Source: a virus
Taxonomy: Duplodnaviria > Heunggongvirae > Uroviricota > Caudoviricetes
DNA: 11,975 bases
IMG/VR virus record: IMGVR_UViG_2675903425_000020
Direction: 5' to 3' (one strand)
The position numbers were made by a program, and so were the translations under genes. The notes beneath the pieces are model-generated. The model was given only the letters and a program-made list of their open reading frames with translations. It did no database searches and was not told the DNA's origin. Positions 3,182 through 5,258 of this stretch are shown piece after piece. How positions within the stretch are numbered: position 1 is the first letter of the stretch; the number at the start of each line of letters is the position of its first letter.

Positions 3182-5258
3182 TATCCGGGTCGCTTTCAGC
3201 GCCGTTGACAGGCTGACCCGACCTGCCGAAAACGCACGCCGCCTGATGGGGCAGTTTGGTGACTCCATCCAGCGAACGCAGGGGGCGATCAAAAATCTCG
3301 AGCGTCAGGCGCGATCATTTGAGCGCGCCCGCGACGCTGTCAGTAAAGCGGATGCTGGCATCGTGAAAGCACGACGCCAGCTTAACGCCCTTAATCAGTT
3401 ACAACGCACGGGTACAGTGCTCAGCGAAAAACAACAAAAGCTGATGCAGCAGTTAAGCACCCGGCTTGAACGCCTGAATGAATCGCGCACACGGGAAATT
3501 CAGAAAATGAGGGAACTTGGCGGAGAGCTGAAACGCCACGGCATTTCCCTGACAGGCAGCGATAACACCATTCAGCAGGCCATCAGACGCACCGAACAAT
3601 ACAACAACCAGCTTGAACGCGAACGGCAGGCGCTTGCGCGTGTAACGCAGGCGCGTGAGCGGTATTCGCACGCGCAGGAAACCGCGGGAAAACTGAAAAC
3701 AGGTGGTGCGCTGGCAATTGGTGCGGCAGCGGCGGGCGGCTATGCTGCCGGGCGTTTTTTGCAGCCTGCGATCGGGTTCGGCAAAGAGATGTCCCGCGTT
3801 CAGGCACTGACGCGAATCGACAAAAACAGCCCGCAGTTTAAGGCGCTGCGTGAGCAGGCGTTAAAACTTGCTGAAACACAGTTTACTGCGAGTGATGCCG
3901 CCAGTGGGCAGAGCTTTCTGGCAATGGCTGGTTTTACTCCGCAGGCCATTCAGGCCGCATTGCCCGGTGTTCTTAATATGGCGCTGGCAGGTGGCGTCGA
4001 ACTCGGCGAGACGGCTGATATAGGCTCCAATATCCTCACACAGTTCAACCTGACAGCCGATCAAATGGACCGGGTGGGCGATACGCTGACAGCAGCATTT
4101 ACCCGGACCAATACTGATTTACGCGCGCTGGGCGAAACCATGAAGTATACCGGTCCGGTTGCCGCAAAACTTGGTATCAGTCTTGAAGAAGCGGCGGCCA
4201 TGGCCGGGATGCTTGCCAATAATGGTCTTCGCGGAAGCGATGCTGGCACGGCCATGCGCGCAAGTCTGTCCCGCCTTGCATCACCGCCAAAAGCTGCGGC
4301 TGATGCACTGAAAGAGCTGGGGGTGTCAGTTGCTGACGCCAGAGGCAAAATGCGCCCGATGGAGGATGTGCTGCTTGATCTCTATAAGGCGACACAAAAA
4401 TACGGACAGGTGGACCAGGTCTCCTTCTTCAAGGACATCGCCGGAGAAGAGGCGTTCGTTGGTTTGCAGACGCTTGTTGCGGCGGCTGGTTCAGGAGAGC
4501 TGCAAAAACTGACCAGAGAATTGCAGGGGGCAAGGGGAGAGGCCGATCGCGTCGCAAAAGTAATGGCTGATAATCTTGATGGGGACCTGAAAAATCTCGA
4601 CAGCGCATGGGAAGGTCTTCGTATTCGCATCAGTGATCTGGTTGACGGTCCGCTGCGTTCTGTCACGCAGTGGCTCACGCGGGTGCTTGAAAAAATCACC
4701 TCGCTGGCGCAGGCCCATCCGGTACTGACGCGCCAGCTACTGATAGCAGGCGGTGCGTTGCTGGCAATGACTGCAACGATTGGCTCGTTGTCGCTGGTTA
4801 TTGGGGTGCTTTACGGGAAGCTGGCCACCCTGCGTCTTGGTTTTGACATTCTTACCCGGTCAATGAATGTCGTCAGGGTGTTACCTGCGCTATGGGGAAT
4901 GGTGACGGGTTCCGTTTCTTTACTGGGAGGCGTTATCGGGGCGTTGTTCAGTCCGGTTGGTCTTATCGTGGCTGCGCTTGCCGGAGCTGCCGTTCTTATC
5001 TGGAAATACTGGGATCCTATCAGGGCTTTCTTTGCCGGGGTGTTCAGCGGGATTATGGAAAGGCTGACCCCGTTGCGCGACACCTTTGAACGGTTTGGCC
5101 CTGTTTTTGACGTAATCGGAAGCGGTTCAGCCAGGTGTTTAACTGGTTTAAATCGCTGCTGTCACCGATGGAGTCCAGCAAGGAAACGCTGGATAAATGT
5201 ACCAGTGCTGGCGAGGTATTCGGTAACGTTCTTGGTGGTGCGTTACAGCTTGTTCTGA
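3132..5258 (+). CDS. Tail tape measure protein (P2 gpT family), N-terminal and central fragment; frame is lost near 5111-5134
   Basis: 708-codon ORF. Coiled-coil-rich N-terminus, conserved tape-measure core (FTASDAASGQSFLAMAGFTPQAIQAALPGVLNMALAGG...LRGSDAGTAMRASLSRLASPPKAA...) and hydrophobic Gly-rich segments. The likely true start is ATG 3159 or 3168 rather than GTG 3132. After ...FERFGPVFDVIGSGSAR the translation becomes nonsensical; the correct continuation is in another frame. Confidence 0.85.
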   Translation: MSGRHFAAGMQTMKTLDIRVAFSAVDRLTRPAENARRLMGQFGDSIQRTQGAIKNLERQARSFERARDAVSKADAGIVKARRQLNALNQLQRTGTVLSEKQQKLMQQLSTRLERLNESRTREIQKMRELGGELKRHGISLTGSDNTIQQAIRRTEQYNNQLERERQALARVTQARERYSHAQETAGKLKTGGALAIGAAAAGGYAAGRFLQPAIGFGKEMSRVQALTRIDKNSPQFKALREQALKLAETQFTASDAASGQSFLAMAGFTPQAIQAALPGVLNMALAGGVELGETADIGSNILTQFNLTADQMDRVGDTLTAAFTRTNTDLRALGETMKYTGPVAAKLGISLEEAAAMAGMLANNGLRGSDAGTAMRASLSRLASPPKAAADALKELGVSVADARGKMRPMEDVLLDLYKATQKYGQVDQVSFFKDIAGEEAFVGLQTLVAAAGSGELQKLTRELQGARGEADRVAKVMADNLDGDLKNLDSAWEGLRIRISDLVDGPLRSVTQWLTRVLEKITSLAQAHPVLTRQLLIAGGALLAMTATIGSLSLVIGVLYGKLATLRLGFDILTRSMNVVRVLPALWGMVTGSVSLLGGVIGALFSPVGLIVAALAGAAVLIWKYWDPIRAFFAGVFSGIMERLTPLRDTFERFGPVFDVIGSGSARCLTGLNRCCHRWSPARKRWINVPVLARYSVTFLVVRYSLF

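Follow-up and report, generated by a model that had tools for sequence, protein, structure and literature searches.

The break in the middle of the tail tape measure gene described here is almost certainly a genuine, vertically inherited frameshift, through which the tape measure gene of prophage Sp13 (Sakai), or CP-933T (EDL933), has become a pseudogene in typical Escherichia coli O157:H7. The window, meaning the whole stretch of 11,975 nt that was analysed, carries it between a set of P2-type tail genes and an intact gene of the gpU family. The break is already known and annotated in reference genomes, and is a case of ordinary gene decay with no recoding signal; there is no direct evidence against this explanation. 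As the analysis shows, ancestral GGG ATC has become GGT TC through the loss of one base and an adjacent A>T change; translation therefore departs from the native frame after residue 653, gains 43 unrelated residues and stops, stranding the C-terminal 281 residues in the -1 frame without a start signal of their own.

The affected gene (3168..5971, plus strand; equivalent to Sakai ECs_2640 and EDL933_RS14220) is a gpT homologue of a P2-like prophage. Frame A, the reading that includes its start, belongs to the TP901-type tail tape measure family, with matches above the curated cut-offs to both TIGR01760 (1.9e-84; 283.7 bits, cut-off 28.8; residues 190-536) and PF10145 (7.6e-55; 186.3 bits, cut-off 33.2). 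Its position is that of the tape measure gene in a P2-type tail operon, after the sheath (ORF 901-2085), tube (ORF 2085-2597) and E/E' and before gpU, in agreement with the annotations of homologues. The tail assembly chaperone gene E (2652..3017, plus strand), identified in the ORF list and annotated as “tail protein” in homologues, is extended in the -1 frame by E' (2963..3181, plus strand; within ORF 2945-3181), which runs from the slippery site to a stop at 3179-3181 and overlaps the tape measure start codon at 3168. RefSeq has a “GpE family phage tail protein” at the EDL933 coordinates equivalent to E'. The programmed -1 frameshift arrangement of E/E' is well known from P2, and the first-pass annotation had placed the programmed site of this operon there, upstream of the tape measure gene; the canonical heptamer T_TTT_TTG at 2963-2969, in the E frame and with the -1 frame open to 3181, bears this out. 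Directly downstream of the tape measure is an intact gene for a gpU-family tail protein (5978..6472, plus strand; PF06995 Phage_P2_GpU, 1.5e-38). Between gpU and the tail-fibre-assembly gene (tfa) lies a hexapeptide-repeat serine O-acetyltransferase-like gene (6596-7201). It occupies the place of the DNA invertase of related phages, as a moron-type replacement common to the O55/O157 prophages.

The tape measure had been described as encoded in two overlapping frames, the second opening after a stop at 5108-5110, and both the ORF list and the translations agree with this. The frame A ORF spans 3132-5258, and the tape measure ATG is placed at 3168 by homology. Read from there (3168..5258, plus strand), it consists by translation and alignment of 653 native and 43 out-of-frame residues (SARCLTGLN...RYSLF), a predicted product of 696 aa: the translation proceeds as ...FERFGPVFDVIGSGSAR, then 40 further unrelated residues, then TGA at 5256-5258. 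Frame B has its TGA at 5108-5110, is open from 5111, and continues with RNRKRFSQVFNWFKSLLSPM... to the stop at 5969-5971. The native reading is frame A up to 5125 and frame B from 5126, a -1 shift because one DNA base has been lost. The frame B part (5126..5971, plus strand), a stranded C-terminal 281 codons (FSQVFNWFKSLL...SFYDKD*), is colinear in alignment with residues 655-935 of the intact homologues. The pseudogene is thus 2804 nt long, as against 2808 nt in intact homologues, and the single uninterrupted frame of 935 aa found in this clade is broken at 5125/5126.

To locate the indel, the first-pass annotation had proposed alignment with intact P2-family tape measure proteins; alignment of the DNA with intact homologues places the gap between 5125 and 5126, within the run named there and inside GGAAGCGG^TTCAGCC. 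The partners were the phages 500465-2 and P88 and E. coli 493/89, LSU61, DEC5B and SWHEFF_68, and the frameshifting lesion (5124..5128, plus strand) is a change of ancestral GGGATC to GGTTC. Relatives read GGA AGC GGG ATC AGC CAG GTG (G S G I S Q V) at the site, and the window reads GGAAGCGGTTCAGCCAGGTG. The proposed one-base deletion is correct insofar as one G has been lost between 5125 and 5126, but incomplete, there being also an adjacent A>T at 5126; the whole can equally be written as a GA>T delins. Similarly, adding one base to give GSGFSQVF, as had been suggested, does restore the present frame but not the ancestral peptide, which is ...GSGISQVFNWF, with Ile rather than Phe. No intermediate, with the deletion only or the A>T only, occurs among the matches listed. 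Relative to 493/89, LSU61, DEC5B and the phage homologues at the same locus, the 1-nt loss has a length not divisible by three, as expected of a pseudogene made by a lineage-specific frameshift.

When the window from 3100 to 6000 is aligned with phages 500465-2 and P88, there are two gaps only, in the window: the one at 5125/5126 and another at 3870. The latter is a second lesion (3868..3873, plus strand), an in-frame 3-nt deletion after 3870 in which CTT GGC TCT GAA has become CTT GCT GAA, changing Gly-Ser to Ala (KLGSET to KLAET). It is specific to typical O157:H7 and absent from 493/89, LSU61, DEC5B and the phage homologues. The first-pass annotation does not mention it.

Is the frame break real, or an artifact of a draft assembly? 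Both had been offered as alternatives, and several features of the window could point to the second, in which a sequencing or assembly error (for example, a miscall of the GGG homopolymer) would hide a gene that is in reality intact. The sequence is draft-like, with N runs of 50, 32 and 50 at 7614-7663, 11186-11217 and 11487-11536 and single Ns at 10830 and 10848; in its right-hand third it passes into another prophage, of Sp8 type, an arrangement that no complete genome shows; and the lost base sits in a short G run. Against this, the window from 1 to 7613 is 99.987% identical to prophage Sp13 of O157:H7 Sakai, with one mismatch (at 6434, inside the gpU gene, where the window has A and Sakai has C), and over the 2804 nt of the tape measure gene there are no differences from either Sakai or EDL933, which were finished independently and carry the same allele. 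With a 1051-nt query around the site, dozens of complete O157:H7 chromosomes, these two included, match at 100% identity. The exact 81-mer across the lesion is present in 264 records of complete E. coli genomes, which come from many laboratories; of the non-identical records (~1,078), every one listed in a spread sample matches over 82 nt, a base longer. Curated annotation already treats the gene as damaged: ECs_2640 is a pseudogene within “prophage Sp13, P2-like phage” in Sakai, and the EDL933 RefSeq annotation reads “phage tail tape measure protein, frameshifted”. Finally, a homopolymer miscall would not create a substitution, and an A>T accompanies the lost base. Because the allele is identical in independent complete genomes, including both reference strains, because the gene is annotated as a pseudogene and because the A>T lies beside the deletion, sequencing error is rejected as vanishingly unlikely, and the other alternative, a genuine inactivating mutation, is the one that stands.

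The distribution of intact alleles points the same way. An orthologous prophage occurs in the same chromosomal region (yecA side) in O55:H7 DEC5B, sorbitol-fermenting O157 493/89 and O157:H7 LSU61, lineages that we take to represent earlier steps of the stepwise model leading from O55:H7 to O157:H7. In all three the gene is intact (2808 nt, 935 aa), and just 5-10 alignment columns, the two indels included, distinguish it from that of the window; for 493/89 the differing columns number five and are exactly the two lesions. The allele of O157:H7 PV15-279 and F3113 is likewise intact across the 82 nt that include the frameshift site. An intact gene in sister lineages, together with the mutant allele in 264 records, therefore indicates a mutation fixed in a lineage rather than an assembly error. 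Judging from this handful of early-branching genomes, both lesions would have arisen on the branch to typical O157:H7, after its split from the early-branching lineages.

If the mutation is real, could both frames nevertheless be decoded? One possibility is -1 ribosomal frameshifting, programmed or leaky, at T_TTA_AAT (5147-5153). This is a slippery heptamer of the canonical X_XXY_YYZ form, in the frame A register and the sole one in the overlap (5111-5255); a Shine-Dalgarno-like AGGTG is found 9 nt upstream of it, and a ribosome that slipped at the heptamer would make an almost complete tape measure protein in which nine residues are substituted. The heptamer, however, is made up of the ancestral TGG TTT AAA (W F K) codons, which are present in all intact homologues and are read there in frame B; hence selection never shaped it as a slip site. 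Nor was a downstream stimulatory structure found: the 90 nt following the heptamer have an MFE of -29.8 kcal/mol (z = -1.43), with 20 of 200 shuffled sequences folding as well, and Rfam yields zero matches in 2500-6600 even at a permissive threshold (E up to 1). In E. coli, frameshifting at heptamers lacking a stimulator has been reported to exceed a background of about 0.055% by no more than 2- to 10-fold (Sharma et al., 2014; PMC4066793). The two-frame organization is moreover not conserved, a single frame being present in all relatives outside typical O157:H7 examined at the site, and a rescued protein would find nothing to assemble with, since the lineage lacks the functions of baseplate, fibre and gpD. 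The slippery-site scan, folding, Rfam and published unstimulated efficiencies thus give no support to programmed or leaky frameshifting, which is rejected as extremely unlikely; the view of the first-pass annotation that this is not a programmed frameshift holds. Transcriptional slippage was rejected as well: near the site there is no A/T run of at least 8, the longest being a T5 at 5104-5108, upstream of the frame B stop.

Another possibility is that this is a functional split gene, with the frame B segment made separately from an internal start (GTG at 5135 or ATG at 5169). An ORF of 278 aa beginning with GTG does extend from 5135 to 5971, and the tape measure gene of phage 520873 is annotated as two CDS. 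But neither 5135 nor 5169 is preceded by a Shine-Dalgarno-like sequence at a usable distance, all close relatives encode a single polypeptide, and what splits the gene of phage 520873 is an unrelated 1-nt deletion elsewhere in it. With no ribosome-binding site, and with a C-terminal fragment that matches no independent family, internal re-initiation is rejected as vanishingly unlikely. Even combined, recoding and re-initiation are very unlikely, and the genuine inactivating frameshift remains the preferred explanation.

The surrounding prophage suggests how such a mutation could have been tolerated. The left end of the window (1..476) is the end of an IS30 copy that, according to the Sakai annotation, interrupts gene D, and a search (tblastn) with intact gpD finds an N-terminal remnant of residues 1-134 at 474-875 on the minus strand. 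Gene D is cut by IS30 at residue 134, the same insertion point, in the window, in Sakai and in 493/89 (tblastn with gpD of phage 500465-2, and annotation). Because this cut is common to all three, gene D was disrupted before the tape measure gene was. For DEC5B, the search covers 300 residues of gpD, and these are colinear. In LSU61, gene D is broken at the same residue without an IS30, which suggests loss of the IS leaving a small scar.

Later losses went further. Strain 493/89 retains genes for portal, terminase, capsid, lysis, baseplate (V, W, J, I) and tail fibre. In Sakai the portal-to-tail-fibre genes are absent and an IS629 is in their place, abutting plasmid-type partition genes and a replication gene. 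The typical O157:H7 version of Sp13 is short of ~17 kb present in 493/89 (portal through tail fibre gene), and IS629 is at the deletion junction. Under the model favored here, the tape measure lesion would have accumulated under relaxed selection in a prophage already disabled by the IS30 in gene D, and the same lineage would also have lost its portal-to-tail-fibre genes beside an IS629 copy. As IS30 had disabled the prophage earlier, and head, lysis and baseplate genes are gone, the frameshift is thus best regarded as secondary erosion, and the order of decay in Sp13/CP-933T as IS30 in gene D first, then the tape measure frameshift and the IS629-associated deletion. The tape measure lesion is, in other words, a small, datable step in this decay.

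No tail could be built from the Sp13 locus, and the break would accordingly do nothing more than abolish function. According to Asadulghani et al. (2009; PMC2669165), Sp13 is without most morphogenetic genes, and they score its minor tail functions “D” (defective). Cross-prophage complementation has been reported for Sp13, whose DNA was packaged despite the missing morphogenetic genes (PMC2669165). Rare, unprogrammed -1 slippage at T_TTA_AAT could conceivably give trace amounts of near-full-length protein, and this or the 653-residue product might take part in such complementation, but the prospect is extremely faint.

Beyond 7613 the window leaves Sp13 inside tfa, and after the run of 50 Ns, from 7664 on, it is 99.9% identical to the region of tfa, side-tail-fibre, lom and J in the lambdoid prophage Sp8 of Sakai; the Sp13 and Sp8-type flanks overlap homologously by ~240 nt within tfa. 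Of 5,426 complete E. coli genomes, not one has the Sp13/Sp8-type join as a contiguous stretch. The window as one piece was likewise not found in complete E. coli genomes, where coverage is at most 77%, because of these N-run joins to Sp8-type sequence. The join is probably a scaffold join, or masking, across the repeated tfa segment.

For annotation, the consequence is that the tape measure frame break should stay annotated as a pseudogene, and not be “repaired” as an assembly error. GGTTC together with the 3-nt deletion at 3870 is also a clean marker of typical O157:H7, setting it apart from O55:H7, sorbitol-fermenting O157 and strains of the LSU61 and PV15-279 types. The additions made here are small: what exactly the lesion consists of (a delins, with a further deletion of 3 nt), its confinement to typical O157:H7, and its timing after the insertion of IS30 in gene D. 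Beyond correct annotation, the finding is of little import.

Among known systems, the E/E' frameshift of P2 (the analogue of lambda G/GT) resembles the tape measure break in belonging to the same operon and in having a canonical heptamer and a -1 overlap. The P2-type site, however, lies upstream in E, whereas the break is a recent mutation, unconserved and without a stimulator. Escherichia phage 520873 (NC_049344.1), with its tape measure in two CDS, has a 1-nt deletion of its own at ~2135 of the locus, equivalent to ~4232 in the window; this is either a sequencing error or independent decay in a prophage-derived record. Among phages, the nearest are two members of the Peduoviridae, Escherichia phage 500465-2 (Gemsvirus), at 96% identity, and P88 (Xuanwuvirus), at 91%, each of which is annotated with one 2808-nt, 935-aa tape measure gene. 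The window shares with them its gene order and the TIGR01760/PF10145 domain, at a DNA identity of 90-96%. Both phages, as well as DEC5B, 493/89 and LSU61, have a continuous 935 aa reading through ...GSGISQVFNWF..., and the window is short of one base there and of three at 3870. Closest of all are Sakai ECs_2640 (NC_002695.2) and EDL933_RS14220, identical over all 2804 nt, which share the frameshift, the 3-nt deletion and the flanks (sheath, tube, E/E', U, acetyltransferase and the IS30-cut gene D): from Sakai, the window differs nowhere within the gene, only by the mismatch at 6434 and, beyond 7613, by the N-run join to Sp8-type sequence.
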